64,000 nt of DNA, from contig OZ220732.1 in assembly GCA_965116905.1 (NCBI GenBank), positions 928,001 to 992,000 on the forward strand. The letters are read 5' to 3'. This stretch comes from Longimicrobiales bacterium. GTDB lineage: Bacteria > Gemmatimonadota > Gemmatimonadetes > Longimicrobiales > Gaopeijiaceae. The notes beneath the pieces are model-generated. The model was not told where the DNA came from and ran no database searches. It saw nothing but the letters and a program-made list of their open reading frames with translations. How positions within the stretch are numbered: position 1 is the stretch's first letter; every line of letters begins with the position of its first letter. This document shows positions 10,196 to 27,853 of the stretch, piece after piece. Both the position numbers and the translations under genes were made by a program.

Positions 10196-10211
10196 GGAAG
10201 GAGGCGGACAA

Positions 10212-10631: not shown

Positions 10632-11737
10632 TGCGCCCGGGTCTGCTGCTTCTGACCGCCGGGCTTGTCGCCCTCTCGGGTGGCCTCGGCTCCAGCCCCG
10701 CCCACGCCCAGGGCGGCGGCAACGGCGTCATCTACATGGCGGCGTACGACCATTCGATCAAGGTCATCGACGAGAATTCGCTCGAGATCGTGGACGAGTT
10801 CGAGACTTCGATCGGGATCCCGATCGGGCTGACGCTGTCCGCCAACCACGAGCGCATCTACGTGCGCGACGCCGAGTTCGAGGAGATCGAGATCTTCGAC
10901 GTGGCCACCCGCCAGTCGCTCGACAGCTTTACCCTGAGCCGCGGGGACCGGAAGGTGCGGATCTGGGGGATGGAGGTCGATCCGGCCGAGGAGTTCGTCG
11001 TCCTCAACACCATGCGGTACACGAAGCGCATCGACCGGTGGGAGATCGACGAGGCGGTGCTGCTCAAGTACGACCTGGAGGAGAAGCAGGTCACCGACAC
11101 GATTCCCTGGCCGGAGGGTGAAGGCGGTCGCAGAGCGCGCCTCATGTTCTCGCCGGAGGGGGAATACCTGTACTTCTTCAGCCGGGGCAGCATCATCGTC
11201 CTCGAGACCGAGGGATTCACGGAAGTGGACCGCTGGGACCTCTCGCGTCCGCTCGAAGAGGGACTGGGCCGCTTCAGCTTCGGGTTCCCCACGAGCCTCC
11301 ACGATGAACGGGGATTCCACACCGGCCTCTTCAACTTCACCGACCCCGTGCAGAACCGCCGCATGATGGGGATCGCGCGCGTCAACCTGGCGGAGCGTGA
11401 CGTCGACTTCTTCACCCTGGGGCCGAGCTCTCCGGTCAGCTTCCGCCTCGCGCCCGGCGGCAACAAGGGCTACGGCCTGGTGCAGCAGATCGGGAACTAC
11501 GAGTTCTGGACCTTCGACCTGGAAGGGCGGCGCGTCGAGAACCGCCAGCGCTTCGCGGGACGACCGCGCATGGGCCTGGAGGTCAGTTCCAACGGCGAGT
11601 TGCTGTACATCTACAACGCCGGCGCGACGATCGACGTCTACGACGCCGACACCTACGAGTTCATCCGGACCGTGACCTTCGACGCGGATATGACAAGCTT
11701 TGTCATGATTCCGGAGGGGACGGGGCGGGCGGGGTAG
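10631..11737 (+). CDS. qhpB: QHNDH beta subunit (beta-propeller)
   Basis: Signal peptide ending AHA-Q, YVTN-like repeats, canonical position after qhpC. Confidence 0.85.
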   Translation: MRPGLLLLTAGLVALSGGLGSSPAHAQGGGNGVIYMAAYDHSIKVIDENSLEIVDEFETSIGIPIGLTLSANHERIYVRDAEFEEIEIFDVATRQSLDSFTLSRGDRKVRIWGMEVDPAEEFVVLNTMRYTKRIDRWEIDEAVLLKYDLEEKQVTDTIPWPEGEGGRRARLMFSPEGEYLYFFSRGSIIVLETEGFTEVDRWDLSRPLEEGLGRFSFGFPTSLHDERGFHTGLFNFTDPVQNRRMMGIARVNLAERDVDFFTLGPSSPVSFRLAPGGNKGYGLVQQIGNYEFWTFDLEGRRVENRQRFAGRPRMGLEVSSNGELLYIYNAGATIDVYDADTYEFIRTVTFDADMTSFVMIPEGTGRAG

Positions 11738-11768
11738 GGGGCCGGGCGTCGGCCGGAGGCGCGCTAGA

Positions 11769-13418
11769 ATGGCCATCCTGGACCCCGAACTCCGCCGCGG
11801 CCTCGCCTACGTCCTCCCCTACCGAGGCCGGCTTGCCGTCATCCTTGGTCTCAACCTCGCCGGGACCGCGCTCGCCCTCTATGTACCGTACCTGACCCGC
11901 ACCCTGGTCGACGATGCGCTCCTGGGCGGCGATCTCGACGCTCTCATCCGTGTGGTCGGGCTCTTCCTCGCCGTCACCGCCGCCAGCTTCGGCCTGAACG
12001 TGGCCAGCGGGCTTCGGTACACGAAGGTTTCAGCTGAAATCCTCTTCGACATGCGGCTCGCGGTCTACCGGCACCTGCAGCGACTGTCGCCGCGCTTCTT
12101 CGCGCGCACTCCGCTCGGCGAGATCATGTCGCGGATCAACAACGACGTGGGCGAGATCCAGCGCGTGCTCGCGGACACGGCGCTGGCGTGGGTGGGGAAC
12201 GTGGCGTTTCTGGTGGGGACGGTCGGCATGCTCCTGTGGCTGGACTGGCGGCTGTTCCTGGCGGCCGCGGTGCTGCTGCCCCCCGCGATCTGGGCGCTGG
12301 TGCGGTACCGGCGGCGGCTCGAGGTGCGCGTCCGCGTCATGCGAGAGCGTAGCGCCGACATCGGCACCTTCCTGATCGAGACCCTGCGCGGCGTACGCCT
12401 GGTCGCGGCTTCGAACGCGGCCGAACGCGAGGCGGTCCGATTCCGCGAGCGCAACGACTCGTTCGTGGACTCGCTGATGAAGATGCAGCGCCTGCGCTAC
12501 CTGGCGGGTGGACTGCCGGGACTGCTGCTGTCGGCGAGCACGGCGGTAGTGTTCCTCTACGGCGGGTCGCGCGTGATCGGCGGCGTGATCACGCTGGGCA
12601 CGTTCACAGCGTTCATGGCGTACCAGATGCGCCTGATCGGGCCGGTGCAGGGCCTCATGGGGCTGTACACGGGGATCGCGACCGCGCGGGTCTCGCTGCG
12701 CCGCGTGCACGAGCTGCTCGACGAGCCGATCGAGGTGGCCGACGCCGAATCGCCGGCCGCGCTGGGTCCCGTGCGCGGGGAGCTGGTCTTCGAGGACGTG
12801 TCGTGCGGGCACGGCCGTGGCGGGGCGGTGCTGGAGGGGTTCGGGATGACCGTCGCGCCGGGCGAGGTGGTGGCTCTGGTGGGTCCTTCAGGGGGAGGCA
12901 AGTCGACGGTGGCCGACCTTATTGTCCGCCATCTCGACCCCGATTCCGGGCGTGTCCTGCTGGACGGGCGAGATGTTCGGGACATCGGCCTGGCGGAGTT
13001 GCGTGCAAATGTCGCGCTGGTCGACCAGACCGCGTTCGTCTTCAACACCTCGATCCTGGAAAACGTGCGGTACGCGCGGCCGGACGCCGACGAGGCCGCG
13101 GTGATGCAGGCCGTCGAGCGCGCGGGGCTGGGCGACTTCGTGGCGGGCCTCCCCGACGGCCTCGGCACGGTGGTGGGCGAGGAAGGCCGGCAGCTTTCCG
13201 CGGGGGAACGGCAGCGCGTGGCGATCGCGCGGGCCCTGCTGGCCGATCCGGCCGTGCTGGTGCTGGACGAGGCGACGAGCGCGCTGGACATGGAAGCCCA
13301 GGCGCACGTGGTGGGCGCGTATCGCGAAGTCATGAGGGGGCGGACGACCGTGTTGATCACGCACCGGGAAGAGATGCTGCGGGGGGTGGATCGGGTGGTG
13401 GAGGTGGGGCGTGGGTAG
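11769..13418 (+). CDS. qhpF: ABC exporter, fused TMD-NBD (QhpF-like)
   Basis: TM domain plus GPSGGGKS, LSAGERQR, LDEATS; follows qhpB. Confidence 0.8.
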   Translation: MAILDPELRRGLAYVLPYRGRLAVILGLNLAGTALALYVPYLTRTLVDDALLGGDLDALIRVVGLFLAVTAASFGLNVASGLRYTKVSAEILFDMRLAVYRHLQRLSPRFFARTPLGEIMSRINNDVGEIQRVLADTALAWVGNVAFLVGTVGMLLWLDWRLFLAAAVLLPPAIWALVRYRRRLEVRVRVMRERSADIGTFLIETLRGVRLVAASNAAEREAVRFRERNDSFVDSLMKMQRLRYLAGGLPGLLLSASTAVVFLYGGSRVIGGVITLGTFTAFMAYQMRLIGPVQGLMGLYTGIATARVSLRRVHELLDEPIEVADAESPAALGPVRGELVFEDVSCGHGRGGAVLEGFGMTVAPGEVVALVGPSGGGKSTVADLIVRHLDPDSGRVLLDGRDVRDIGLAELRANVALVDQTAFVFNTSILENVRYARPDADEAAVMQAVERAGLGDFVAGLPDGLGTVVGEEGRQLSAGERQRVAIARALLADPAVLVLDEATSALDMEAQAHVVGAYREVMRGRTTVLITHREEMLRGVDRVVEVGRG

Positions 13419-13489: not shown

Positions 13490-13735
13490 ATGGCGAGTAT
13501 CACGATCCGCAACCTGGACGACGACGTAAAGACGCGCCTTCGCGTACGCGCCGCCGAGCATCACCGTTCGATGGAGGAGGAAGCGCGTATCATCCTGCGC
13601 GACGCCGTAACTGACCGGCACGCTGATCCACACAATCTCGCGACGTTCACGCGGCAGTGCTTCGCGTCTCTTGGCGGCATCCAACTCGAACTTCCGCCGC
13701 GCGGCCCCATGCGCGAGCCTCCAGATTTCTCCTGA
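13490..13735 (+). CDS. FitA-like ribbon-helix-helix antitoxin
   Basis: MASITIRNLDDDVKTRLRVRAAEHHRSMEEEAR; GAGGAG RBS. Confidence 0.9.
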   Translation: MASITIRNLDDDVKTRLRVRAAEHHRSMEEEARIILRDAVTDRHADPHNLATFTRQCFASLGGIQLELPPRGPMREPPDFS

Positions 13736-13743
13736 GCGGCTTC

Positions 13744-14175
13744 ATGTTCATCATCGATACGAATGTCGCGTCCGAACTCATGCGTCCCGAACCGACGGCC
13801 GCGGTAGCGGCATGGATCGGTGAGCGCGATGCGCGGGACATGTACCTGACGGCCGTGAGCGAAGCGGAACTCCTTTACGGCGTCGCGATCATGCCGACCG
13901 GCAAGCGGCGGAGCGCGCTGGAGGCTGCCATGACACGGTGGCTGAGTCTCGGCTTCAGAGAACGGATTCTTCCGTTCGACAGCGCGGCGGCCCGAGCGTA
14001 CGCGGAGATCGCTGCCGAGCGGCGTCACGCTGGCCGGCCAATCGGCGAGGCCGACTGCCAGATCGCCGCGATATCCCGCGCACGTGGAGCCACTCTGGTC
14101 ACGCGTAATGTACGAGACTTCGAGCGTACGGGACTGAATGTGATCGATCCTTGGGCGGGGGTCGGTCCATCCTGA
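13744..14175 (+). CDS. vapC: FitB/VapC PIN toxin
   Basis: IIDTNVASE, ADCQIAAI, TRNVRDF. Confidence 0.92.
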   Translation: MFIIDTNVASELMRPEPTAAVAAWIGERDARDMYLTAVSEAELLYGVAIMPTGKRRSALEAAMTRWLSLGFRERILPFDSAAARAYAEIAAERRHAGRPIGEADCQIAAISRARGATLVTRNVRDFERTGLNVIDPWAGVGPS

Positions 14176-14246
14176 CGACCGCGGCCGCCGACCGTGAACG
14201 CGTGAGCCCGTGGCGCAACAACGTGCCCGACCCGTGGGACCGCAGC

Positions 14247-15344
14247 ATGCGGGCCGACGCGCTTGGTACGCGCGCCCGGAGTCTGCGCAATGTGCTGGCG
14301 GTCCCGTTCCTGGTCGCGGCCTTCGGAATCTGGGCGGGTTGCGACGGCGGCACCGACACCGACTCCACCATCACACCTGTCGCGATGCCCTTTGCTGACA
14401 AGTTCCGGCTTGAGCAGGTGATCACGCCGGAGCAAAGCATGGAGTCGCCCATCGTCAGGATTTCGGGGGCTTCCTGGAACGGTGATCGCTTCGCCATCGC
14501 CGACGTTTCGGAGGCGAATGCCAAGCTGTTCAGCATTGATGGGTCGTTGCTTGCCACGGTGGGACGAAGCGGCGAGGGCCCGGGCGAGTTCATGGCCGCT
14601 CGCTATCCGGTCCTCGCGGACGGGCGTCTGTTCGTGGCCGATGGGGCACTGGGCCGGGTGTCAGTCTGGACGGAGAGCGGAGAACTGGAGCGGGAGATCC
14701 AGGTTGGAGCGGGGTTCATCTCGGATTTCGCCTTGCTGCCGGATGGCCGGCTCGTGTTCACCGGCAGCGGCTTCGGCACGCCGGGCGCGGCGATGGGCGT
14801 GTTCGCGGACGACGGCACCGCGGTGGCTCAGGGGCTTTTCACCACGACGGTTCTCCCTGCGGATGCCGATCCCGAGGCCCCGTGGGCCAACGTGCGGCAG
14901 ACGTCTTTCGCCGTTGCCAACGACACCGCCTGGGCCGTGTCGACGATTTCGGACAGTCTCTGGGCCGTCCCTCTGACCGCCGACACGCTGTGGGCCGAGG
15001 CCTACCGACTTGCCATCCCCGGTTACGTGGCACCGGCCGCGCCCGAAGAACCCCTGCGCTCGCTGCAGGACCTGAGCGCCTGGGGCAGGAGTTTCCACGG
15101 TGCGGCCCCGCCGGCCGCAAGCTCCGAACTACTGGTCTTTCCGTTTGTTCAGGGCGTGCTGAACAACGGCGACCCCACGATCCTGCTCATGAGAGATGGG
15201 GAAGGAGACTGGTACGCGCTCAGTGATCCTCCCCCGGTCATCGCGGCGTTCGCCGATCGGCTCCTGGCAATCCACAATCCCCTGGAAGACCCCGTGGAGC
15301 TGGCTGTGTACGAGGTGCGGAGCGCGGGTGGAACAGGACGATGA
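14247..15344 (+). CDS. 6-bladed beta-propeller (NHL-like) lipoprotein
   Basis: Lipobox-like [14 protein letters not shown] motif; start uncertain. Confidence 0.75.
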   Translation: MRADALGTRARSLRNVLAVPFLVAAFGIWAGCDGGTDTDSTITPVAMPFADKFRLEQVITPEQSMESPIVRISGASWNGDRFAIADVSEANAKLFSIDGSLLATVGRSGEGPGEFMAARYPVLADGRLFVADGALGRVSVWTESGELEREIQVGAGFISDFALLPDGRLVFTGSGFGTPGAAMGVFADDGTAVAQGLFTTTVLPADADPEAPWANVRQTSFAVANDTAWAVSTISDSLWAVPLTADTLWAEAYRLAIPGYVAPAAPEEPLRSLQDLSAWGRSFHGAAPPAASSELLVFPFVQGVLNNGDPTILLMRDGEGDWYALSDPPPVIAAFADRLLAIHNPLEDPVELAVYEVRSAGGTGR

Positions 15345-16495
15345 GATCCCCCAAGGCGCCCCTTGCTGCGTTTGCCGCGTTCGCGGCCGCCCTCGTGAGT
15401 TGCCAGGAAACGCCCTCAGGCCCGGGAATCCAGGTGGACACCCTGCCGGGCGGACGGGTCGTCGTCTCCAACCCGGACGCACATTTGGTGGCCGGTGGCC
15501 CGCCGCTGCGGCTTGTCGAAGAGCTTCGCATAGGCTCGGTCGACGGGAGTTGCGATGCCTTTGGCTCGGTGGTTTCGATGACCGAAGACGAAAGCGGCAG
15601 GATCTACGTCGCCGACTTCCGCAATGCCGAGATCACGATCTTCACGCCGACCGGCGAATGCCTGCGGAGCTTCGGTGGCAAGGGCGAGGGGCCCGGAGAG
15701 TTCGCCATGCTCTCGGGGATCGCGTGGCAGCCTCCCGGATTCCTCTGGGCCAAGGACCCGCTCAACGATCGGTTGACCGTTTTCGATTCGGCAGGGGCAG
15801 TGCTGGCAACCCACACGCTTGAACCGTCGTTGAGCGCCTCGATCCCATGGCGAGGATGGGTGGACCGGCAGGGACGCCTGCACGATTTCGTGTTGAGCCG
15901 CGACGTCCACGTCAGGTACGGTACCGGCCCTGATCTAGTGGTGTTGGATACGTTCCCGGTTCCCGAGACGCCAATGCCGGAACCCCCAACGTACACGCAA
16001 ACATCGGGCAGCATCGCAATGATGTCCCGTCTGCCCCACTCACCGGACAGTCGATGGGCTGCGAATCATGATGGGAACATCTGGAGGGCACGCACCGACG
16101 TATTCGAGTTGCACGAAACGACGTACGACGGCGACACCCTGCGCACCGTGCGCCTTGGCCGTCGCCCGGAAAGGCTGGAAGGGAGGGAGAGGGACAGTAT
16201 TGCCGACGTGACAGGAGTGCGCGCCAGCAGGCTTCCCGAAACGAAAGAGGTCCTCGGGGGAATCTACGCTGGTGCCGACGGGTGGACGTGGGTCAGCCGG
16301 GTCAGCGTTGACAGGGGACCGGTCGAGGTGTTCGATGTGTTTGATGACGGAGGGCGATACCTCGGTCCCGTGTCCTCAGCGGTCGCGATCGACCTCGGAA
16401 CCAAGCCGGTGTTCGGCCGGGGTACCGTGCTTGCCGTAACCGAGGATGAACTTGGCGTGCAATACATCGTTCGATTGCGGATCGAGCAGGGGTGA
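15341..16495 (+). CDS. 6-bladed beta-propeller (NHL-like) lipoprotein
   Basis: LVSC lipobox, EELRIG, GGKGEGPGEF, C-terminal TEDELGVQYIVRL. Confidence 0.85.
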   Translation: MRSPKAPLAAFAAFAAALVSCQETPSGPGIQVDTLPGGRVVVSNPDAHLVAGGPPLRLVEELRIGSVDGSCDAFGSVVSMTEDESGRIYVADFRNAEITIFTPTGECLRSFGGKGEGPGEFAMLSGIAWQPPGFLWAKDPLNDRLTVFDSAGAVLATHTLEPSLSASIPWRGWVDRQGRLHDFVLSRDVHVRYGTGPDLVVLDTFPVPETPMPEPPTYTQTSGSIAMMSRLPHSPDSRWAANHDGNIWRARTDVFELHETTYDGDTLRTVRLGRRPERLEGRERDSIADVTGVRASRLPETKEVLGGIYAGADGWTWVSRVSVDRGPVEVFDVFDDGGRYLGPVSSAVAIDLGTKPVFGRGTVLAVTEDELGVQYIVRLRIEQG

Positions 16496-16500
16496 AACCG

Positions 16501-16959
16501 TCACCCCTTTGGCAGCGAGCCCGACTCCTCGCCGGAGCCCAACGCGCGCCCGGCCTTGCGGGCGACCAGCAGGCTGGCCACGCCGCCTCCGGCGCCGAGG
16601 AGTGGCAGAATGCTGAACGGGACGATGGCGCCCCCGTTGGGCCAGTCCCCCCAACTGCCGCCCACAACGAGTCCTGCCAGCAGGAGGCCGCCCAGCACGC
16701 CCACCGATGCGACTCGTGAGTAGGAAAGCTCGTCCAACGAGCGGCCGCGCGCCTCGATCGCCAACATGGCCGAGAAGCTCGTACCGATCCCGACGCCCCA
16801 CACGGTCCCCGCAATGATCATGAACCCCAGCTCATCCTCGGCACCGGGAAAGAACACCTTGCTGGCCAAAGCGACCAGTGAGAAGAACCCCGCGCCGACA
16901 GCGCCGAAGGTCAGCCCCATGCCGAGGACACCACGAACGACTTTCTTCCAACGCGACAC
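16501..16959 (-). CDS. Hypothetical 4-TM membrane protein
   Basis: Four Gly-rich hydrophobic segments; AGGAGG before GTG 16959. Confidence 0.7.
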   Translation of the reverse strand: MSRWKKVVRGVLGMGLTFGAVGAGFFSLVALASKVFFPGAEDELGFMIIAGTVWGVGIGTSFSAMLAIEARGRSLDELSYSRVASVGVLGGLLLAGLVVGGSWGDWPNGGAIVPFSILPLLGAGGGVASLLVARKAGRALGSGEESGSLPKG

Positions 16960-17358
16960 GGCGGCCTCCTGCTTGCAGTGATCTGGTGCCATGGAGGATA
17001 CCTGAGATAGGGTCGGGCGTCCAAGCGGTTGCCAGCGCGGTAAGGCCCAGGGCAGCGGCAGATTCAGGCAGCACCTAAGGCGGTGACACTCGCCGAATTG
17101 ACGCCACCCGTGCGGGACGGCTGCGAGGCGAGAAAGCGCAGCAGTTTCCCGCAGGTCCGCTTCTTCAGTGGCCGCCGACCGGACCCCGCAGCCCGGTGCA
17201 CCTGAGAGCTGCGTTGCACGTTTTCCCGACTGGGACTGTTAACTCTATCGCACAGGGGAGGTGCGGACGCTGGAAGCTCTCTTCCGAGCCTCAGTTTCCC
17301 GTAGATCCCTGACTCGGGGGAAACGCCCTCGTAGACACTCACAAGAGGAGGAAGCATC

Positions 17359-17640
17359 ATGACGTACCGCCAGTTGTTCTCGCTTTTGCCGGACTTTCCG
17401 AAGCCGCTGAGGGTCGGAGTGTCACTCCTTGCCGTCCTTGCGACGGCGGCGGGAGCTGGTACCCTCGCGACATCCCCGGCTGCGGCTGCAGTCGGTTCAC
17501 CCTTCTTGGATTGCACGTCAGAACAGGTGGACATAGGGTTTGAGGTCATCGGTCGAGAGTGCGGTGGTCCGGGTGTGGGCATCATCCATTGTCACTCGAG
17601 CGGTAGCGTGATCGTCGAGGATGTCCATTGCCTTGCATGA
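17359..17640 (+). CDS. Small secreted 4-Cys peptide (paralog 1)
   Basis: Strong RBS GAGGAGG, hydrophobic leader ending PAAA, core C-x15-C-x9-C-x12-C. Confidence 0.8.
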   Translation: MTYRQLFSLLPDFPKPLRVGVSLLAVLATAAGAGTLATSPAAAAVGSPFLDCTSEQVDIGFEVIGRECGGPGVGIIHCHSSGSVIVEDVHCLA

Positions 17641-17857
17641 GGCCTGTTCGGCCTGTCTTGCGTGAGAGCGACCGTTAGCCGCGGTCGCAGCTGCGTGGGA
17701 CAACCTGTGCCCGCTCCCGCTTCCGCAGCCTGTGTCCAAGCGGAAACCGCGCTGCGTGAAGTGGGAGCGGGAGCTTCATGCTCAGTAACGTGACTCCTGT
17801 CGCATCGGTCTGCCGGAGCAGCCCATTGCCATTGTATGGAAGGATGAGCGAAACACA

Positions 17858-18547
17858 GTGAATAGAGAAAAGACCTCTTCTGTCATCGCGAACCTCATGG
17901 TCATTGTGAGTGTTTGTTGCGCGGTTGTTATGACGACCGCCGTCTTACGGCGCGCGCCTGGCACTACGGAATCGATCCAACCGCGCGAGCCTGCGACCAC
18001 CGGTACTCAAGAGATCCAGGATTGGGCTGCACTCGCGTCAGGTGGTCACGATCTTGGACCAGAAGACGCGCCTGTGTGGATTGTCGTATTCTCGGACTTC
18101 CAATGTCCAGCATGTCGCGCTCTAGCTACACGGCTCCGCGCGCTCAATTCAACGCAGCCTGCTCTTGCTAGGGTCTTCTATCGACACTTCCCCCTGCCGT
18201 CGCACGTACATGCTGAGGAGGCAGCTTTGGCAAGCGAGTGCGCCGCAGCGCTAGGGCGCTTCCTGGCCTTTCACGATGTCCTGTTCTACGAGCAAGAGGT
18301 AATCGGCCACATGCCTTGGCAGTACTTTGGCGATCTCGCCAACCTAAACGACATTCCCGCATTCACGGAGTGTATCCGAGTGGGCGAGCCGATGACCCGT
18401 ATCGTAGACGATCGGCGAACAGGCGAACTCATGGGGATTGATCGTACGCCCACTTGGCTCATCAATGGTACCGTGGTTGTTGGAGTCCCATCGCTATCGC
18501 GCATTAAGGACTTGATCGCCCAGCATCGCACGGCGGATCCGCAATGA
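17858..18547 (+). CDS. DsbA-like thiol-disulfide oxidoreductase (Thioredoxin_4 type), membrane-anchored
   Basis: FSDFQCPAC, YRHFPL, RTPT cis-Pro loop. Confidence 0.88.
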   Translation: MNREKTSSVIANLMVIVSVCCAVVMTTAVLRRAPGTTESIQPREPATTGTQEIQDWAALASGGHDLGPEDAPVWIVVFSDFQCPACRALATRLRALNSTQPALARVFYRHFPLPSHVHAEEAALASECAAALGRFLAFHDVLFYEQEVIGHMPWQYFGDLANLNDIPAFTECIRVGEPMTRIVDDRRTGELMGIDRTPTWLINGTVVVGVPSLSRIKDLIAQHRTADPQ

Positions 18548-18602
18548 GGTGATATCGCGATGTCCGTCTGCAGTAACCCACAAGGAAGAAAGGCAAAACA
18601 AA

Positions 18603-19097
18603 ATGACTGATCGAAGAATCGTCGCGGTGCGGCGCCCCATGTTGTCGTGGGCTTACCTCGCTGTAACGCTGCTCTTAGTCGGCGCTGAGAACGCTTCTGC
18701 CCAACAGCAGATCAGCATTCCACGAAACCCAGCCAATGGGTACGTCGGCCTGAGCTACCGGCCAACGGACTTCACGGAAGCTGACGTACAGAAGCGTGCC
18801 CTTCCATTCGTAATCGCCGTGGTTCCTTGCTCGCCGGCCCATTTTGCTGGAGTAGAGCCTGGCGATGTCCTTCTTCGGGTAAACGACCAGGACTCGAGAG
18901 GCCGGGGGCTGTTTCGCGGGACCATTGGAACAGAGTATCAAGTGACCCTAAGACGTGCAGACGAACTGTACGACCTACGGTTTGTCCGCGTTGAGCTTCC
19001 GACACAAATGCCTGCGCCCGTGCGAACCTCTCCCATGGGATCGACGGAAGAATGGAATTGCAGTAGTTCTCAGTGGTTCGGGGCTGTGGAACAATGA
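18603..19097 (+). CDS. Secreted stand-alone PDZ-domain protein
   Basis: Signal peptide ending ASA-Q; GYVGL and SPAHFAGVEPGDVLLRVND PDZ signature. Confidence 0.8.
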   Translation: MTDRRIVAVRRPMLSWAYLAVTLLLVGAENASAQQQISIPRNPANGYVGLSYRPTDFTEADVQKRALPFVIAVVPCSPAHFAGVEPGDVLLRVNDQDSRGRGLFRGTIGTEYQVTLRRADELYDLRFVRVELPTQMPAPVRTSPMGSTEEWNCSSSQWFGAVEQ

Positions 19098-20182
19098 GAG
19101 GTTGGCTGGTACTAGCGGTGGTTGGTATGGCCGTTGGGACGTGCGAGAGTAACAGCAGCGAAAGCCACGAGAATCCGGTTGAGGTCTTCGAGATGAGGGA
19201 AGAACTCAGGATCGGGCGTGCAACTGGCGCTGGCCCGGAGGTCTTTGGGCGGATCGTGTCCCTGGCTGTCGATGACCGCGGCGCGATATACGTGGCTGAC
19301 TCGCATGGGCCGGCGATAATCGCGTTTTCCTCCGAAGGGAAGTTTGTCCGGCGCATCGGGCAGCAAGGACAGGGGCCTGGAGAGTTTGGGAGCCTTGAGG
19401 GTATCGCCTGGCAGCCAACCACTGCGACTATATGGAGCATGGACTTCACGAGGCGCACCTTAATGGGCTTCGATACACTCGGCGTGCATCGGTCTACACA
19501 CCGGTACGCGACAGAGACGATGCACTTTAGCCTACCATGGGTGGGGCGGATAGACGCATCGGGGCATCTTTATGACTTGGACCCGATGACCCATACGCAG
19601 GTGGTTAGATACCAACTATCTGTGGACACCGTAGGGCCGGTTGACAGTCTAGCTATACCGGCGGTCCGACCAGAACCGCCAACCTACACGATCCGCCGCG
19701 GGGCTCTGACGGAGCTAGCCACTGTGCCCTTCAGCCCGTGGATTGCCTGGGATGTATCGCCGCAGGGCAATGTGCTGTTGGCCAACACCTCCGTGCTTGA
19801 GATCCACGAGGTGACATTCGACGGTGACACGATCTATTCAATAGCGCTTGACCGTAGCCCGCCTCCGCTGGAGCGTCGAGTGCGTGACAGTATCGCAAGC
19901 GACATCGGAGTGCCGTCGAGATTGTTGCCGAAGCATAGGACCGCCATGGAAGACGTGGTCGTTGGATTGGACAATAGCATCTGGATTGACTTGACCGATG
20001 ACACGCAAAGCTCATGGGAAGTGTTTGACGAGAAAGGCCACCATATCGGACAGGCAACATCGCCTTTGGTCATCAACAAGAAACCCCGCCCGGTCGTCAC
20101 TATGAGGACCCTAACAGGAATCACAGAGGACGACTTAGGCGTTCAATATATTGTGCGACTAGGGATTGAATTCCCCACCTGA
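19094..20182 (+). CDS. 6-bladed beta-propeller (NHL-like) protein
   Basis: EELRIG, GQQGQGPGEF, TEDDLGVQYIVRL; ATGA overlap with PDZ gene. Confidence 0.85.
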   Translation: MRGWLVLAVVGMAVGTCESNSSESHENPVEVFEMREELRIGRATGAGPEVFGRIVSLAVDDRGAIYVADSHGPAIIAFSSEGKFVRRIGQQGQGPGEFGSLEGIAWQPTTATIWSMDFTRRTLMGFDTLGVHRSTHRYATETMHFSLPWVGRIDASGHLYDLDPMTHTQVVRYQLSVDTVGPVDSLAIPAVRPEPPTYTIRRGALTELATVPFSPWIAWDVSPQGNVLLANTSVLEIHEVTFDGDTIYSIALDRSPPPLERRVRDSIASDIGVPSRLLPKHRTAMEDVVVGLDNSIWIDLTDDTQSSWEVFDEKGHHIGQATSPLVINKKPRPVVTMRTLTGITEDDLGVQYIVRLGIEFPT

Positions 20183-20321
20183 CCTGGGAAAGGAGGTGTA
20201 TAGCAAACACAGGGAGAAACGGGGAGTCGCAGTCCCTGGCTCGCGAAGGGAAGCATAGCTATCGTTGTAGTCACCCCAAAGCAGTTTGATCAAACCAATC
20301 GTTGAAAGGGAGTACATTATC

Positions 20322-20615
20322 ATGCGGAAGCTTTTTCTTGTTGACATGGCAGGCATCAAGCGCGGCGCAGCTGCAAGGTACGCTGCACTTCTAACCAGTC
20401 TGTTTACGATCGTAGGGGGTGCACAGGCTGCTGCGCCTCTTTCGGTCGCGGCGATGCCTCATTCGGAGACAGGCGCGGCCCCCAATTGCTCTGCGGCAGC
20501 CGTAGCGGCCGCTATGGGTCTCTTGTGGAAGAGGTGCGAGGGGCCGGGATCGGCGACTCTCCACTGCAGCGAAGGTGGGTCGGTTCTCTTGGAGAACGTC
20601 GAGTGTGAGGAGTAG
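20322..20615 (+). CDS. Small secreted 4-Cys peptide (paralog 2)
   Basis: AAGGGAG RBS, hydrophobic leader ending AQA, same Cys spacing and C.GPG...HC...GSV..E.V.C motif as 17359..17640. Confidence 0.8.
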   Translation: MRKLFLVDMAGIKRGAAARYAALLTSLFTIVGGAQAAAPLSVAAMPHSETGAAPNCSAAAVAAAMGLLWKRCEGPGSATLHCSEGGSVLLENVECEE

Positions 20616-20721
20616 GGCGTGAAAGGAGAGGGATCGAGCCTGGTCGTACCATGGGTGTCCCGTATCCGCCAACCAGACGGGAGGCGAAGCTCGGGACTCC
20701 GGTGGGTCTAGACCAGGAGGT

Positions 20722-20761
20722 GCATTGCCCCGTCCCCGCGAGCGCGGGGACGGGGCAATGC
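20722..20761. repeat. Perfect 19-bp inverted repeat (hairpin)
   Basis: gcattgccccgtccccgcg-ag-cgcggggacggggcaatgc; no U-tract. Confidence 0.85.
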
Positions 20762-21096
20762 TCGGATGCACGACTGCTCGCTTGGTCAGGGACGCAGGGG
20801 GCCGCTCTTCCAACCTCGCGAGAGATCTTCAGCAAGGAGAGGCGGTGGCCCGAAAGACGCTGCTCGGCGCGGCAAGAGTCGAGAGTGTTCGCCGGCTGAA
20901 GTACGGACTCGGCCGGAGCCAGGGGAGATCGCGGTCATTCTCGCGATCTCCCGCACCACGGTCGGCAGCTAGGTCCGGCGCGGGAGCGACCGGGGGCTGG
21001 CGCGGCACAGGGGCGTGACGTTTCAGCTCCTGATGGTACGAGTGCCGCGCGCCCCCGGACGGATATCAGTACAGCCGCTTCTGCGACCACTACCGC

Positions 21097-21260
21097 GTGG
21101 GGCTCGGTCGCCTTGAACCCGATGTCAACCGAACATACCATGACCTGGCGGTGCACGACCGGATGGCGGTGCTGCCCGCCCGGCCGCGCTCGCCCCAGGA
21201 CAAGGCGAAAGTGGAGGCGACCGTCCAGAACGTGGGACCATGGCTTCTTGGCATCCACTC
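21097..21260 (+). mobile_element. IS21-family transposase (IstA) remnant
   Basis: YHDLAVH..AVLPARPRSPQDKAKVEATVQ resembles the IstA C-terminal DDE segment; no full gene or istB. Confidence 0.7.
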
Positions 21261-21853
21261 GGGGTGCTACCGGGCCTGCTGGGTGCCGGCCCGGAACCCG
21301 CTCGAAGTGTTGGCGGTCGAGAAAGGCGAGAGGATTGATCGGGACATGCTCGAGGAGGCGCCTAGGTCTGGTCGACCTCTCCCTCGACCGGCAGGTCATC
21401 ATGATTGGCCTGTGCGTCGACAGGCTTTTTCCGGAGATCGGCCGCGCGCAGCTCGATCTGTCGTACCTGATACATCGGGGGCTCCATGTACGAGGGACTC
21501 CGCCTCACGGGCGTTCCCGGAAGGTATCACGCTGACCGGACTCCCTGTTTCCGTAGCTCGTCAGTCTTTGATTCGGGTCTCAACTCGAACTGTTCGAGCT
21601 TCTCGAATATGGCCCTCTCCCCCCTGATCGTGGTGGGCGGAGTGCCGGTGAAGGTCAGGGCCCAACTAACCTCTTAGCGGTTCGTCGCCAAGCCGGGATC
21701 GTCGGGTGTCCGAGGGGCACACCAACGTTCTCACTTGAGCGCCACCCGACCTCACGCTGCACAGGCGTTAGCGGGATAGGTCCCCAAGGCATCACGATGG
21801 ATGGCGCTGGGAAGTCCACAAGCGCGAGGAGTCAGAGGGGGTCGAGGACCTTC

Positions 21854-21962
21854 TCCAACGAGCGGCCGCGCGCCGCGACCGCTAGCATGGCCGAGAAGCT
21901 CGTACCGATCCCGACGCCCCAAACGATCCCCGCGATGATCATGAACCCCGACTCATCCTCGG
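21854..21962 (-). pseudogene. Internal fragment duplicate of the membrane-protein gene 16501..16959
   Basis: 109 nt with 9 mismatches to 16733..16841; flanks not homologous. Confidence 0.85.
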
Positions 21963-22014
21963 TGGGGAGCCCGCCGTGATTGAGAAGCTGGCCCGGCGTT
22001 GAGGGCGAATGCGG

Positions 22015-22578
22015 TTATCCGTCTCCTGCCGACAGCATGTTTTGGGCCACCACGCCGAGCTGCCGTCCGTGACCGTCGGCCACGACGCGACCTCGCCCGT
22101 CGACCGCGAAGACCCACGGCGTCCGTTTCGTAATGGCATGACCGAGGGGCTCGGCCGATGTGACGATGACGGGCCATTGTCGGTCACGGAGGTAGTCCGT
22201 CGCCCCTGGACCGGCAGCAACGGCAATGATCCGATAGCCCTTGTGTACGCTCCCTTCCAGCCAGTCAGACCAAAGGGGTGCAACACGGCGGCTATGGGCG
22301 CAGTCGGGGTCAAAGACGAGGAGGAGCGCAGGCTGCCCCGTGCCGAGCTCCTGCAACACTCCGTGGGAATCTCTCAACGACAGATCCGAAAGGTCATCTC
22401 CCCTCGTCACAAAAGGGGACGGGCCATCGGTGTGGGCCTTGACGTAAGCGAAAGCGAGGGCTTGAAGGACGGCCACGACAGCCAGGCCGGCGACGGCAAC
22501 GTGCCATGGCCCGCGCCAAGAACCTCTCCTCTCGCTCTCGGGAAGAATCTCGGCGCTCGCGGCCTCGTTCGATGACAT
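22015..22578 (-). CDS. Membrane-anchored thioredoxin-fold (TlpA/peroxiredoxin-like) protein with CxxS
   Basis: TM helix, LLLVFDPDCAHS, RTPWVFAVD. Confidence 0.75.
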   Translation of the reverse strand: MSSNEAASAEILPESERRGSWRGPWHVAVAGLAVVAVLQALAFAYVKAHTDGPSPFVTRGDDLSDLSLRDSHGVLQELGTGQPALLLVFDPDCAHSRRVAPLWSDWLEGSVHKGYRIIAVAAGPGATDYLRDRQWPVIVTSAEPLGHAITKRTPWVFAVDGRGRVVADGHGRQLGVVAQNMLSAGDG

Positions 22579-22824
22579 TGCGACCCCCCGTTGGGATTGC
22601 CAGGCAGGACAAAGGGCGCCTGCCTTCACTGTCCCTGCTAACAGGTGAGATGCCCACAGCGTGCAATCGGAGGACGTGGTAGCCAACAGGCGCGAATTGC
22701 ACGATTCCGTCCTGGGATCTGTTAGTTGATCATAAAGAGGGGAGTGACCCCTCATTCGGGGCGTGGCCCAGTGGAGTCTTTTCTGGCCCAGTTGCCTTGT
22801 TTTCTTCCCAGAAGGAGTGGAAAC

Positions 22825-23025
22825 TTGCGAGCTACCGCGATAGTGCTCATCCTGCTGAACCTTGTCCTCGGCGCGGGTCTACTGGAGTCGATCAGGAACG
22901 ACGCGACTCGAGCGCAGGGCTTCCGCAGTTGCTGCCGTGTTGCAGGTGCCGAGGCCTACTGCTGTGACCAGTGCTGTTGGTTCCGCACCGATTGTGACTT
23001 CGACAGCGATTGCCAGGATGCCTGA
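22825..23025 (+). CDS. Small secreted 8-Cys peptide (66 aa, TTG start)
   Basis: AAGGAG 7 nt before TTG; hydrophobic leader; core CC-x8-CC-x2-CC-x5-C-x5-C. Confidence 0.7.
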   Translation: MRATAIVLILLNLVLGAGLLESIRNDATRAQGFRSCCRVAGAEAYCCDQCCWFRTDCDFDSDCQDA

Positions 23026-23062
23026 CCGGTAGGAGGTCGCGGTTGATCGGGAGGCTGAACGG

Positions 23063-23866
23063 ATGACGACGACTCAGCGCCGCAGGAAACCTGTCGGCTG
23101 GGCCGGGGCCTGCTTCAGGGCCATGGCGCCTTGGCTTTTGCTGCTCGTGGGTGGCAAGGTTGTCCTGACCCAGATTTGGGCGCCGCTGGAAGAGGCGTCA
23201 TCGCTGTCTCGATGGCTTTGGCTCATCATTGATGACCTTGCCTTGGTCCTTCCGTTCCTCCTTTTCGCGGTGGGCCTTGCTCTGGGACGAGTGCTGGGGC
23301 ACTCGGGGCGAGTGGTTCGGGTCGCCGTACTGGTGGGCATGGCGGTGAGCATCCTGTCCTACAGCTTGGGTGCCTGGGCGGCGCCGGAAATCGAGGAGCG
23401 GCTTCGGGCGGCGCGGCGTGCCGACACCGTCGACACACGTCAGTTCGGAATCCCAACGCCGGTCGGCATCCTCCGCAATCTTGAATTCGTGAGGGCCAAT
23501 CCACCGCCCCAATACAGCCTTCGAACGAGCAGTCCACAGGAGTTTCCTCCCAACGTGCTGCTCTGGCGCTTGCACCAGCCACTGGCGTTCGCCGTATTCG
23601 GGATCGCCAATGTGCTCCTGGGGCTGCTGGCTTCCGAGTTGACGGTGGACCTGTCGAACCGGGTGAGGCGAAATGTGCGCCTGGCCGTGGGCGTCGGGGG
23701 CGCGATCGCGTTCCTGGCCTGCATGGTAGTGGCTTCCCCTGTCGAGCCGTTCCTGCGGGACGGCACCATGCGTTCGGGAATCGTCGGCGCGTGGCTGCCG
23801 CTCCTGATCCCGCTTGTCGAGGGCTTGGTCCTTCGGTACCTCGTCCAAAGCCGGCGGTACGGATGA
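23063..23866 (+). CDS. Hypothetical multi-pass membrane protein
   Basis: About six hydrophobic segments with a central loop; GGGAGG RBS; coupled to the ECF gene. Confidence 0.75.
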   Translation: MTTTQRRRKPVGWAGACFRAMAPWLLLLVGGKVVLTQIWAPLEEASSLSRWLWLIIDDLALVLPFLLFAVGLALGRVLGHSGRVVRVAVLVGMAVSILSYSLGAWAAPEIEERLRAARRADTVDTRQFGIPTPVGILRNLEFVRANPPPQYSLRTSSPQEFPPNVLLWRLHQPLAFAVFGIANVLLGLLASELTVDLSNRVRRNVRLAVGVGGAIAFLACMVVASPVEPFLRDGTMRSGIVGAWLPLLIPLVEGLVLRYLVQSRRYG

Positions 23867-24555
23867 CTGACACGACGTTCGGTGTCCCCCCTTCACTCTC
23901 GGACGATGTGACGCCCGCAGGGGAGAAGCCGCGCCCGTCCGATGCCGACGACATGCCGGACACAGAGGGTGCCGACGACACGCCGGACACAGAGGGTGAT
24001 GCCATTGACGGGGTGGCCTTTCGGGACGGGGACGAAGAGTGCTATCGCGCCGTCCTGGACCGTTTTGAACTCCTGATTCGCAAGGTCTTGTCGTCGTATG
24101 GAGATTGCGATGCCGACCGGCAGGACCTGTATCAGGATGTCTGCGTCCGCATTCTAGAGCAGCGCCACGGATACCGGGAGCAGGGCGCGATGGGCGGATG
24201 GATACACACGCTGGCACGTAACGTGGCCCAGAACTGGCGCGACTCGCAAATCGCACGTGAGTCGGCGCAAGACGAATATGTGGCCGCGTTCGCGCCGATC
24301 GCCGCGGCCAGGCACATCACCGAGGACCCATCGAGGCTCCTGATCCGCAAGGAGCTCCTGGCCAACGTGGAGCGGGCTCTCGACGCCATTTCGGACCAGC
24401 AGGCGAACGCGCTCAGATTGGTCCACATCGAAGGGTACAGTGTCAAGGAGGCTGCTCAGCTCCTGGGCACCAAGCCGGCGACCGTGCGATCCAACGTGCG
24501 CCATGCCAGAGAGAAACTGCGGGAACAGGCGGAGTTGAGAGATGAAATGTCCTGA
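23863..24555 (+). CDS. ECF RNA polymerase sigma factor
   Basis: DLYQDV (region 2), WIHTLARN, EGYSVKEAAQLLG..TVRSNVRHAR (region 4). Confidence 0.9.
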   Translation: MTDTTFGVPPSLSDDVTPAGEKPRPSDADDMPDTEGADDTPDTEGDAIDGVAFRDGDEECYRAVLDRFELLIRKVLSSYGDCDADRQDLYQDVCVRILEQRHGYREQGAMGGWIHTLARNVAQNWRDSQIARESAQDEYVAAFAPIAAARHITEDPSRLLIRKELLANVERALDAISDQQANALRLVHIEGYSVKEAAQLLGTKPATVRSNVRHAREKLREQAELRDEMS

Positions 24556-24982
24556 CCTGAGAACGCTGAGCCGAGTCGGTACGCCCAATGCCGATCCGGC
24601 CGTCGTGGAACACGTGGTGAGTTGCCGTTCGTGCTGGCTGGACTGGCAGATCCAGCAAGGCATGCGTTATCTGGAGGATCCGGTGGTCCAAAACGCGTCG
24701 GATGTGAACGACCGGGTGATCGCCAGGGTCCGCATCAGGGCGCGGCGTGATTCTGAGCCGCCGGCGAGGTGGCGCGATGCCGCGTTGTTCGGCGCAGTCG
24801 TCGCGATTGCGGTGCTCGCTTTCCTGTTGGCAGTTCCGGCGGCCGCAGTGGCTATACCGGTCGCCCCGGCGGTGGGGTACGCGATCCTGGCGGGTGTCCT
24901 GGGCACGCTCTACGTCAAGAAGCGGGACGAAGGTCGCGTTGCTGGCGATTCCGCCGTGGGAGCGGCAGGTCCTGATCTCTAG
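24542..24982 (+). CDS. Zinc-binding (ZAS) membrane anti-sigma factor
   Basis: HVVSCRSC (HxxxCxxC) followed by two TM helices; overlaps the sigma stop. Confidence 0.8.
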   Translation: MKCPDLRTLSRVGTPNADPAVVEHVVSCRSCWLDWQIQQGMRYLEDPVVQNASDVNDRVIARVRIRARRDSEPPARWRDAALFGAVVAIAVLAFLLAVPAAAVAIPVAPAVGYAILAGVLGTLYVKKRDEGRVAGDSAVGAAGPDL

Positions 24983-25135
24983 GCCACGGAGTTCCGCACT
25001 TGCCGCACCGGTGCGTTGCAGCCCTGCGCACCGCCTACCAGTCCGGTAGCGGTCTGGCTACAGTCCGGTATCAGTCTTGATCTCCTTGTCATTGGCGGGG
25101 TTGCCAATTTTTGCCAAAGCGGCTAATCTCCCCCC

Positions 25136-25375
25136 ATGAGCACCATGAACATCTCGCTTCCGGCTTCTCTGAAGTCCTATGTCGACGACCAGGTGGAGGG
25201 TCGCGGATACGGGAGCAGCAGCGCGTATGTCCGCGAACTCATCCGCCGTGACCGCGATCGCCAGCATCTCCGGAGTCTGCTGCTCGAGGGCGGCGAGTCG
25301 GAGCCCGCGGCCCCGGCGGACGCCGCCCATTTCGAGACGCTGCGGAACCGCGTTCGCCACTACTCGGGGGAATGA
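25136..25375 (+). CDS. parD: ParD-family antitoxin (RHH)
   Basis: MNISLPASLKSYVD..GYGSSSAYVRELIR. Confidence 0.88.
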   Translation: MSTMNISLPASLKSYVDDQVEGRGYGSSSAYVRELIRRDRDRQHLRSLLLEGGESEPAAPADAAHFETLRNRVRHYSGE

Positions 25376-25704
25376 CGCCGAAGCCGGTGGTTCTGCGTGC
25401 GGCAGCCCGGCAGGACGTCGATGCCGCGGTCAGCCACTACCTGGCGGGCGCCGGCCGTAAGACCGCGCTGCGCTTCGTCGAGCGAGTGGAGGAGGCGCTT
25501 CTCCACGTCGGCGTGAACCCGGAAACGGGATCGCCGCGCTACGGCCATGAAGCCAACCTGCCGGGGCTCCGCTCGTGGCCGGTTCGGTCCTTTCCCTATC
25601 TTGTCTGCTACATGACGGCCCGTGGCCGGGTGGATGTGTGGCGGGTGCTGCACCGCCAGCACGACATCCCGGCGTGGATGGACGAGAGTGAGGGACTGAG
25701 ATGA
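25372..25704 (+). CDS. parE: ParE/RelE-family toxin
   Basis: [34 protein letters not shown]. Confidence 0.88.
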
Positions 25705-25844
25705 AGATCTTGCGGGAAGGAGATCGCGGGTACGCTCTGGCGCCGGAACGTGGGCGGGTCGAGATCGTTTACGAGTACCGAGCGTGGCCAGAATCGCCGA
25801 TCCGCCGAGGTAGATTGGCAGCGCACGAAAACAAGGTGGAGCAC

Positions 25845-27104
25845 ATGAGGACCAGGCACGCAATCGGGTTCGTCACGCACGCGCTCATCGCGGCGGCACT
25901 GTTGACGGTCGGGCCGGCGCACTCCCAGGAGATTGTCGAGCTTCCGGCCGCAGACCGCTTGCTGCGGGCCGACTTCGAAGAGGTCTACCGGAGCGGCTCC
26001 ATGGCGGGCGACGACTGGGAGCAGTTCGGCCGCGTACGCCGAGTCGGTTTCGACGGTGCTGGACGGCTGTTCGTCTTCGACAGCCAGGCCGACCGCATTC
26101 ACGTGGTGGGTCCGGACGGCGAGTATCGGCACACGATCGGTCGTTCGGGCGAGGGTCCGGGCGAGTTTCGACGCCCGGACGGGCTTGCGGTCATGCGCGA
26201 CGGGAGAGTGGTGATCGCGGATCTCGGCCATCGTGCGTACCACATTTTCGGGGCGGACGGCGAATTCGAACGCATGGTGGGCATGGCGCCGGAAGCGGGT
26301 GACATCCGGATCACGGACCTCTATCCGCACCCTGGTGGCGAGGCCATCTTCACCGCCGTCGGGTCCCAGTTGCTCTCGGGCAATTTCGGGACGTCCGGGG
26401 GACGGACCATCCCGCATACATCCCGGCCGGTGGAGCGGCTGTTGCTGACCGCGGACGTGGCCGTGAAGGACACCGTTGCCGAGGGGTGGCTGCCCAGCGG
26501 CGGAGACCAGACGTCGCTGCCTGTCGATGGGCAGGCGAACTACCGCGTGCCGACCCCGCTGCCGTTTGGACCGCGTATCCTGCCGGGCGTGCTCCCGGAT
26601 GGAAGCGTGGCGTTCTCGGACTCCTCGGCCTACGCGATCAAGATCACGCGGCCGGGCGCGGGCGTGTGGCGGATCCTGACGCGGCCGCTGGAGCCGATTC
26701 CCGTCACGGCTCGCGAGATCGAAGCCGAAAAGGAGCGCCGCCTCAAGGACCTGGAGGAAAGCAGCGGCAGGGGTGGGATCATGATAAACGGTGTTCGCGT
26801 GGCGCCCAATCTGGACCGTGCCCGGGCGCGAATCGAGGAGCTGGAGTTCTTCGAGGAGGTCTCGATCGTCCGCGGTCTCAAGACGGACTGGACCGGCGGA
26901 ATCTGGGTGCAGCGGCATGGAGAGGAGCCCAGCGACGACGACGGACCCATCGATGTCCTGACCATGGACGGCGAGTACATCGGCACGTATCCGGCAGGCG
27001 CGATCGAGATGCCGGACGCTTTCGGGCCGGACGGACTGGTCGCGTTCGTCGAGACCGACGAACTGGATGTGCAGACGGTGGTGGTGAGACGGCTTGTCCG
27101 GTGA
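25845..27104 (+). CDS. Secreted 6-bladed beta-propeller (NHL-like) protein
   Basis: Signal peptide, [11 protein letters not shown]-terminal [13 protein letters not shown]. Confidence 0.85.
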
Positions 27105-27853
27105 CGACCGGCCGTGGCGTCACCGTTGCCGTCATCGACAGCGGCGTCAACCCGGACCACCCGCATGTGAGCGGCGTCGCCGGGGGCGTGCGGATCGACC
27201 TCGCCGGGGACGTGTCCGATGACGCGTCGGATGACTACGTCGACCGGCTCGGCCATGGCACCGCCGTCTTCGCCGCAATCCAGGAGAAGGCGCCAGCGGC
27301 TGACATCTTCGCGGTGCGCGTCTTCGAGGATCGGCTGAGGACGAGCACCCGGGCGCTGGTCGCCGCGATCGATTGGGCAGCGGAGCGACGGATCCGGGTC
27401 GTCAACCTGAGCCTCGGGACGTTGCGCGAGGAGCACGCGGGAATGCTGAACGAGGCGGTGGAACGGCTGGCGGATGCCGGGGGTGTGGTGGTGGCGGCGG
27501 CGGAAGCGGATGGGCGCCGGTGGTGGCCGGGTTCGTTGCCGTCGGCGATCGGGGTCGTGATGGACGCCAAATGCCCGCGCGAGTGCGTGAAGGTGCGGGC
27601 GCACGGGCAGGTGCGGGCGCACGGGCAGGGCGGAGACACCGTGGAGAGCCTTGGCGACGGCTGGGTGGTTGCCGCTTCGCCTTATCCGAGGCCGATCCCC
27701 GGCGTGCCGGTCGAGGCCAACCTGAACGGGATCAGCTTTGCCGTCGCCAATGTGACAGGAGTGCTCACGCGCCGGTTGGAAGGCGTTAGCGGCCCTCTGA
27801 CACCGGAGGTCTGTCGGGAGCTGTTGCCCAGGGGAAGCACATCCCGCCCATGA
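27101..27853 (+). CDS. qhpE: Small cytoplasmic subtilisin-like (S8) protease, probable QhpE leader peptidase
   Basis: VAVIDSG / GHGT / NLSLG / GISFA triad motifs; 250 aa with no signal or propeptide; qhpE assignment is inferred. Confidence 0.7.

Follow-up and report, generated by a model that had tools for sequence, protein, structure and literature searches.

The extracytoplasmic function (ECF) sigma factor SigM of Bacillus subtilis is controlled by YhdL and YhdK, two integral membrane proteins that act jointly as its anti-sigma factor, and this control is thought to be allosteric and exerted by a membrane lipid (available part of PMC11081497). Here we describe a five-gene cassette from a Longimicrobiales bacterium, located at positions 22015-24982 of a 64,000-nucleotide stretch (the window; contig OZ220732.1, positions 928,001 to 992,000), in which an ECF sigma factor is likewise co-operonic with two integral membrane proteins, a ZAS-type anti-sigma factor and a six-helix protein, and which also encodes a peptide with eight cysteines and a redoxin. 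We tentatively favor an interpretation in which the six-helix protein, with its predicted LptF/G fold, is the sensor half of a two-part anti-sigma factor, and the peptide is an accessory that feeds back on this sensor. The host genome (G000) is a single contig and is 97% complete; coordinates are window positions unless prefixed C1 (genome contig), L or P (fetched loci). The cassette is arranged as follows:

22015-22578, minus strand: redoxin gene, 187 aa, with a CAHS motif and an N-terminal membrane anchor
22639-22666, minus strand: promoter-like site TTGCAC-N16-CTGTTA towards the redoxin gene, 16.9 bits, holding the right half of an inverted repeat
22697-22724, plus strand: promoter-like site TTGCAC-N16-CTGTTA towards the peptide-membrane protein-sigma-anti-sigma operon, 31.2 bits
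22825-23025, plus strand: eight-cysteine peptide gene, 66 aa, TTG start 7 nt after AAGGAG, with an export-type leader
23063-23866, plus strand: six-helix membrane protein gene, 267 aa, predicted LptF/LptG membrane-domain fold
23863-24555, plus strand: ECF sigma gene, regions 2 and 4, its start overlapping the stop of the membrane protein gene
24542-24982, plus strand: ZAS-type anti-sigma gene, C3/H24/C28/C31, with two C-terminal hydrophobic helices

A first-pass annotation had already described the five open reading frames (ORFs) and their motifs (the 66-aa eight-cysteine ORF, the CAHS redoxin, the multi-transmembrane protein, the ECF sigma factor and the HxxxCxxC anti-sigma factor), and all of these were confirmed. 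The LptF/G fold, and a promoter motif common to this cassette and to another one at lower coordinates in the window (the first cassette), had gone unnoticed. Among the five proteins the sigma factor alone exceeds a Pfam or NCBIfam family cut-off; none of the five matched the PADLOC anti-phage defence models at E 0.001, and a search of 21500-25300 against Rfam gave no match.

The sigma factor (Pfam Sigma70_r2 and r4_2 above cut-off; TIGR02937 at E 1.5e-22, 80 bits against a cut-off of 42.9) possesses regions 2 and 4 and no region 1/3 core, as is characteristic of ECF (group 4) sigma factors, and begins with an acidic extension containing a 27-nt duplication. In an alignment of 24 anti-sigma proteins C3, P4, H24, C28, C31 and D34 are invariant, and all 24 thus carry the ZAS motif C-x(20-26)-H-x3-C-x2-C. 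The best PDB match is B. subtilis RsiW (E 3.4e-4), while Pfam zf-HC2 is matched weakly by 9 of the 24 (best E 0.021) and not by the window copy. Like RsiW of the SigW-RsiW pair (ZAS class I; PDB 5wuq), the protein has an N-terminal C-x20-H-x3-C-x2-C domain and its gene overlaps that of the sigma factor, which it presumably inhibits. Unlike RsiW, it ends in a two-helix hairpin with no periplasmic domain, and it is always accompanied by, and in some loci fused to, the six-helix protein. Since it lacks a domain outside the membrane, it would need a partner to sense anything there. Direct fusions of the membrane protein to the ZAS anti-sigma factor are found in P0071, P0193 and L088. In a second fused clade the N-terminal part matches the membrane family (hhalign probability 97.9) and the tail matches the gene following sigma in a distant locus (E 2e-16); the ZAS motif has been lost in the distant and fused clades. 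Synteny (described below) and fusion make it probable that the membrane protein serves as the sensing partner in a two-part anti-sigma factor, analogous to YhdL/K, and the triad most likely works like SigM-YhdL-YhdK. The likeness is functional and we do not claim homology: in the cassette the accessory subunit is predicted to adopt a six-helix fold of the LptF/G type, and a likely secreted eight-cysteine peptide and a redoxin are added.

The AlphaFold model of the membrane protein consists of six long helices (pLDDT 88). Foldseek returned LptG and LptF chains at the top (probability 1.0, TM-score 0.50-0.66, best E 3e-3), a wide structural search (VIA) gave LptG/F at Z 18.0 (rmsd 3.9, 236 residues aligned), 16.3 and 15.1, with the next unrelated fold at 7.3, and Atlas placed the protein at 0.90 with an LptF/LptG cluster. 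The protein is therefore predicted to have the six-helix membrane-domain fold of LptF/LptG (PDB 6mjp, 9doh, 8frl; available text of PMC5082905), at Z 15-18 over 220-236 residues, and two conserved prolines flanking transmembrane helices TM2 and TM3, together with a late W-x-P motif, align as well. It differs from these permease subunits in several respects. The jellyroll is absent: the model contains no strands and has a loop of approximately 63 residues in its place, and this segment (P108-H171) measures 58-68 aa in all 90 family members, leaving a large gap against the LptF/G of the same genome. The proline-to-proline span across TM2-TM3, which is 56-57 aa in 25 of 25 LptF/G proteins, is 37-50 aa in the 90 members, approximately 13 residues shorter, with a 3-residue loop in the model. 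The glutamate motif of the coupling helix is found in 25 of 25 LptF/G proteins from Gemmatimonadota and in none of the 90; according to the part of PMC5082905 available, this glutamate is required for coupling to LptB. Furthermore, the membrane protein is encoded by one sigma-linked gene per locus, unlike the LptF and LptG pair, a canonical copy of which lies separately in G000 at C1:3303008. There is no adjoining lptB and no conserved ABC ATPase neighbor; all loci of 9 kb or more in length together gave ten ABC ATPase matches, and four of them belong to the query's own clade and occur in loci without the membrane gene. The family is small, with 123 representatives at 50% identity and a presence in 26 of 401 genomes of the phylum. 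Because the jellyroll, coupling helix and glutamate motif are all missing, the protein lies outside the LptF/LptG permeases, though apparently derived from one.

The relationship among the genes was followed in 42 distinct close loci, which were picked partly by peptide and partly by membrane-protein matches and are not an even sample, and in an even draw of 151 genomes of the family, among which kin are not independent. In the close loci the membrane gene is followed by the sigma gene in 41 of 42, a ZAS anti-sigma gene is present in 40, and the peptide gene precedes the membrane gene in 30; a redoxin is encoded nearby in 26 of these 30, versus none of the 12 without a peptide. Each of 12 distant loci has the membrane gene, the sigma gene, a zinc-less two-helix gene and a propeller gene, with the peptide and redoxin absent. 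Propellers are found within 5 kb in 38 of the 42 close and all 12 distant loci. The even draw yielded 34 peptide matches in 17 genomes, 16 of which carry the membrane gene or its fused form, and this gene comes next after 23 of the 34. A redoxin lies within 2.5 kb of 25 of these 34 matches and a peptide near 25 of 30 redoxin matches, which bears out the first-pass view that a peptide is paired with a thiol oxidoreductase. The positions of the sigma and redoxin genes relative to the peptide vary among loci. G000 itself has four peptide copies, each near a redoxin and a sigma factor of the same clade; three are directly followed by the membrane gene, and 1.6 kb separates the fourth from a fused form.

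On a quick tree of 55 membrane proteins, which has long branches, the 12 close loci without a peptide are scattered and need 9 changes, at least 5 of them forced by well-supported branches. This distribution suggests that the membrane protein, sigma and anti-sigma factors form the core, and that the peptide and redoxin are a second module which has been repeatedly lost. Because they appear to have been lost repeatedly while the triad stayed, the peptide is better regarded as an accessory than as an obligatory trigger. The earlier suggestion of peptide-triggered ECF signaling, taken to mean an obligatory input, is weakened by the 12 of 42 close and 12 of 12 distant membrane-protein loci that have no adjacent peptide, and by the location of the peptide gene itself behind a sigma-type promoter (see below).

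Several observations weigh against our interpretation. The structural likeness to LptF/G is weak at the level of sequence: Pfam LptF/G is matched in 11 of 33 membrane-protein members with a best E of 3.5e-4, below the cut-off, and hhalign of the two families gives a probability of 3. The tail of the second fused clade aligns with the ZAS family at a probability of only 21.9, and stand-alone and fused clades have dissimilar periplasmic segments, yet both have peptides. Among strong membrane-protein matches in the phylum sample, 12 of 41 have no upstream peptide; in the even draw, 5 of 21 membrane-protein genomes have no peptide match, and 11 of the 34 peptide matches are not directly followed by the membrane gene. 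Two close relatives have decayed peptide genes next to triads that are intact (L060 and L067; the L067 locus has a shorter sigma match, and no anti-sigma gene was found there). Finally, the distance correlations give the peptide-membrane protein pair (0.68) no prominence over peptide-redoxin (0.60) or redoxin-membrane protein (0.74).

The peptide has hydrophobic residues at 3-20 and the cysteine pattern CC-x8-CC-x2-CC-x5-C-x5-C. It is present in 30 of 36 genomes of the same genus and in none of 24 genomes of two other families; a profile search gave matches in 19 of the 69 family genomes and a single doubtful one in the other 331 of the phylum sample, and 65 relatives were found in the protein database. 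All eight cysteines are kept in 75 of 78 aligned peptides, 54 of these 75 with the spacing 8-2-5-5; in the other three a single cysteine is lost, and neither His nor Asp takes its place. Asn12 in the leader is invariant, and Tyr45, Trp52 and Gly41 are common. Over 14 pairs at 60% identity or more, dN/dS is 0.19 for the core, 0.44 for the leader and 0.53 for the linker; both Cys codons occur at each Cys column, and the start and ribosome-binding site are retained in relatives. This conservation, the retained start signals, the mixed codons and the low ratio for the core argue that the peptide is encoded by a real gene, and it is conserved beside homologous ECF loci with its Cys positions fixed, as the first-pass annotation required of it. 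Its hydropathy, together with an [AVST]xA motif that 62 of the 78 linkers contain, makes export of the peptide likely, although its leader may alternatively remain as an uncleaved membrane anchor.

Its fold is less readily assigned. The AlphaFold model is of low confidence (pLDDT 66, pTM 0.31), disulfide pairing is illegible from it, and Foldseek with this model returned no match. The peptide has no Pfam, PDB-sequence or confident Atlas relative; the nearest Atlas clusters are conotoxins at 0.76-0.81, a range rated by the tool as a lead only, and a match to the quinohemoprotein gamma subunit (1jju, E 0.49) was treated as chance. Knottins have the Cys order C-C-CC-C-C, and the order here is CC-CC-CC-C-C with no match to such a family; the knottin or conotoxin likeness proposed earlier appears superficial. 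Conotoxins, spider knottins and sponge cysteine-bridged peptides (available part of PMC12426817) do share the arrangement of signal, short linker and disulfide-rich core, but the peptide differs from them in its three CC pairs, its bacterial operon, and the lack of a Pfam, PDB-sequence or Foldseek match. In L090, L096, L108 and L111 a peptide subfamily with redoxin and propeller adjoins an ABC transporter pair and a two-component-like pair, which stand in place of the membrane sensor.

In an alignment of 46 redoxins C93 and P154 (the cis-Pro) are invariant, whereas position 96 is Ser in 22, Cys in 17 and Thr in 7, so that 29 of 46 are of the CxxS/T type. The window copy, CxxS (CAHS) with an RTPW cis-Pro loop, lacks the CxxC dithiol. 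Pfam AhpC-TSA is matched by 13 of the 46 and not by the window copy, and a PDB profile search gave thiol-disulfide isomerase-like matches at E 1e-5. With its active Cys and cis-Pro loop, the protein is classed as a TlpA/AhpC-TSA-like redoxin of predicted thioredoxin-like fold, and its company suggests that it is the probable folding partner of the peptide, arranging the peptide's disulfides. Gln39 in its anchor helix is kept in 44 of 46, and we speculate that redoxin and peptide could meet through a helix contact between Gln39 and Asn12.

The first-pass annotation had also pointed to an inverted repeat within 22580-22825. It is present (22660-22667 and 22696-22703), but each half is the first box of one TTGCAC-N16-CTGTTA site, the two sites standing back to back and diverging. 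Because the two halves carry a -10 element each and are variably spaced from locus to locus, we read them as the -35 halves of two divergent promoter-like sites, and the reading as an operator palindrome was rejected. A sigma-70 promoter scan found no sites. The motif recurs upstream of homologous operons, in many related loci at approximately 95-130 nt before the peptide, with a second box that varies by clade. With a matrix derived from 32 sites of other genomes, 10 sites of at least 20 bits were found in G000 versus 0, 0 and 0 in three Markov controls, and exact matches number nine at spacer 16 and none at spacers 13-15 and 17-20. Of the 11 G000 sites of at least 17 bits, eight could be judged, as could the 16.9-bit window site; seven judged sites precede operons of the peptide, redoxin or Cys-protein/propeller kind, among them the first cassette, and those at C1:88290, 394917 and 721881 do not. 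The site in question and the genes behind it are:

17214-17241, plus strand: third TTGCAC-N16-CTGTTA site, 28.8 bits, upstream of the first cassette
Behind this site: the first cassette, with Cys protein (17359), DsbA-like (17858), PDZ (18549) and propeller (19073) genes

Among 81 motif sites in the fetched loci, which include the training sites of the matrix, 20 precede a redoxin, 18 the peptide, 13 other secreted Cys-rich proteins, 10 a propeller, 4 the membrane gene and 4 the sigma gene, with nothing recognized behind 12. A promoter upstream of their own operon is typical of ECF sigma factors, and the cassette sigma factor may well be the one that reads TTGCAC-N16-CTGTTA. As one motif precedes both cassettes, these appear to be linked, the first cassette being a likely target of this sigma clade. 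The distant loci (L153-L164) have another conserved upstream motif, starting GCAAC approximately 16 nt before a second box, from which it follows that promoter type tracks the sigma clade.

In G000 approximately 110 ORFs match a profile of six-bladed propellers at an E of 1e-10 or better; many of them lie in tandem, and several come after unrelated secreted Cys-rich mini-proteins. The small Cys proteins of the first cassette (17359-17640 and 20286-20615) are paralogs of each other (E ~1e-4), unrelated to the eight-cysteine peptide. The ORF at C1:749283-751031 (minus strand) joins a DsbA-like domain and a propeller in one protein, and it lies behind a motif site and the gene of a small secreted Cys protein. 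A 33-bit site at C1:394917 (minus strand) points back at a leaderless 19-aa ORF with eight cysteines (C1:394727-394786, plus strand), metallothionein-like and directly behind an ArsR-like gene. In L063 (5577-5762, plus strand), and similarly in L064, a 61-aa secreted ORF stands under the same motif with propellers after it; it has six cysteines in the knottin-like order C-C-CC-C-C and would start with Gln-Gly-Cys after the probable cleavage site. No sequence match was found for it, the best PDB match being at chance level (E 1.1). Sponge knottins often start with pyroglutamate, according to the available part of PMC12426817.

The scheme that we propose takes as its directly observed basis gene content, conservation, fusions, the predicted fold, the loss of the coupling motif and the promoter-like motif. 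The membrane protein and the ZAS anti-sigma factor would together hold the sigma factor at the membrane; once released, it would read TTGCAC-N16-CTGT(T/C)A and transcribe its own operon and the redoxin gene, as well as, in the first cassette and elsewhere, operons that pair other secreted Cys-rich mini-proteins with six-bladed propellers. The peptide would be exported and acquire four disulfides set by the CxxS redoxin. It might then bind the membrane protein and tune or reset the switch, which is the least certain step; a cue from the membrane or envelope may be the primary input.

It is also quite possible that the same triad operates with the peptide purely as an output, a secreted disulfide mini-protein acting outside the cell or on its partner propellers, while the LptF/G-like protein responds to a lipid or envelope condition in the way that undecaprenyl phosphate is sensed by YhdL/K. 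This would agree with the repeated loss of peptide and redoxin from a retained triad, with the 13 motif sites before unrelated secreted Cys-rich proteins and the 10 before propellers, with the abundance of propellers both near the loci and in G000, and with LptF/G being lipid-handling proteins; YhdL/K (available part of PMC11081497) offers a precedent for such sensing. What argues for a closer role is that the other Cys proteins are unrelated between loci while the eight-cysteine peptide is conserved, and that its gene keeps its place immediately ahead of the membrane gene in the stand-alone clade as well as in the fused one. That the membrane protein retains a transporter or chaperone function, exporting or inserting the peptide or a lipid and merely co-regulated with sigma, is very improbable: its fold is that of a transporter and its gene is tightly adjacent to the peptide's, but it has neither coupling helix nor glutamate nor a conserved ABC ATPase neighbor, it is fused to the anti-sigma factor in some loci, it is kept where the peptide is absent, and the peptide has a leader of its own.

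The metal or redox buffering suggested by the first-pass annotation received little support. On this view the peptide would serve as a periplasmic buffer resembling metallothioneins or bufferins, the redoxin would keep it reduced, and the ZAS switch would answer metal or oxidant stress. The three vicinal CC pairs and the ZAS motif would fit, and TlpA-type folds are often reductases. Metallothioneins, however, are leaderless cytoplasmic Cys-rich peptides, whereas this family has a conserved hydrophobic leader and no Pfam match, and the 19-aa ORF behind the ArsR-like gene looks like the real metallothionein of the cell. A parallel is given by the Caulobacter bufferins, Sec-exported Cys peptides under SigF-NrsF control (available part of PMC11626156), which resemble the peptide in their Sec-type leader, Cys-rich core and ECF/anti-sigma control. 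The cassette has no MNIO, DUF2063 or DoxX genes, its Cys pattern is unrelated, and a redoxin replaces the modifying oxidase; MNIO/DUF692 (PF05114) gave no match anywhere in G000, the Caulobacter control being positive. A folded disulfide scaffold would agree with the fixed, even number and spacing of the cysteines and with the conserved Tyr45, Trp52 and Gly41; no Cys loss is to His or Asp, and a dedicated oxidoreductase travels along. We therefore consider a buffer improbable.

Returning to the feedback scheme, a bolder version, rather unlikely in our estimation, would make the lipopolysaccharide-exporter subunit, after loss of its motor and export domains, a membrane receptor controlling the ECF sigma factor, with the self-encoded three-CC mini-protein as its ligand. 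The Asn-bearing leader helix would dock in the membrane in the manner of the LptC helix on LptFG, and the circuit would drive a large and polymorphic arsenal of secreted disulfide mini-proteins and propellers in sponge-associated bacteria.

A run labeled as a sponge metatranscriptome contains a related strain, with pieces approximately 88-97% alike. The run is stored as contigs; those of the related strain span 23314-24245 and 24252-24965 with little over the peptide, and decide transcription neither way. The cassette lies within a stretch (13490-27104) that splits a quinohemoprotein amine dehydrogenase operon and resembles an insertion hotspot: qhpD, gamma, beta-like and ABC genes (9038-13418) stand before it and qhpE (27101-27853) after it, and it contains two toxin-antitoxin-like pairs, propellers, both Cys cassettes and an IS21 remnant. 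Just past the redoxin gene, the membrane ORF at 16501-16992 recurs as a broken copy at 21769-21963 (minus strand). Contigs of runs X1 and X3 join 21361 to 25079 without the cassette, which may represent an empty site in related strains or, alternatively, another locus sharing the same insertion sequence and toxin-antitoxin pieces.

Accessory membrane proteins in ECF/ZAS switches are already known, as are Cys peptides under ECF control. We found no description of an LptF/G-fold subunit in an ECF/ZAS switch, of the eight-cysteine peptide or of the promoter motif in a literature in which subscription papers were poorly covered. The main text of the ECF classification paper (PMC7826278) does not mention Gemmatimonad, Lpt, TGCAC, thioredoxin or propeller, and its supplementary group descriptions could bear on the matter; the available part of PMC11651109 mentions only ranthipeptides. 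If our interpretation is correct, the cassette would represent a new route from transporter to receptor, in which the membrane domain of a type VI ABC system serves to control a sigma factor, and would add a bacterial disulfide scaffold that is new and has a folding enzyme of its own. All of its parts are small, and a laboratory strain carrying a reporter could be used to reconstruct them, making the input and the role of the peptide directly testable. The promoter motif would meanwhile provide a search key for secreted Cys-rich mini-proteins, one of them with a knottin-like Cys order, in this uncultured lineage.

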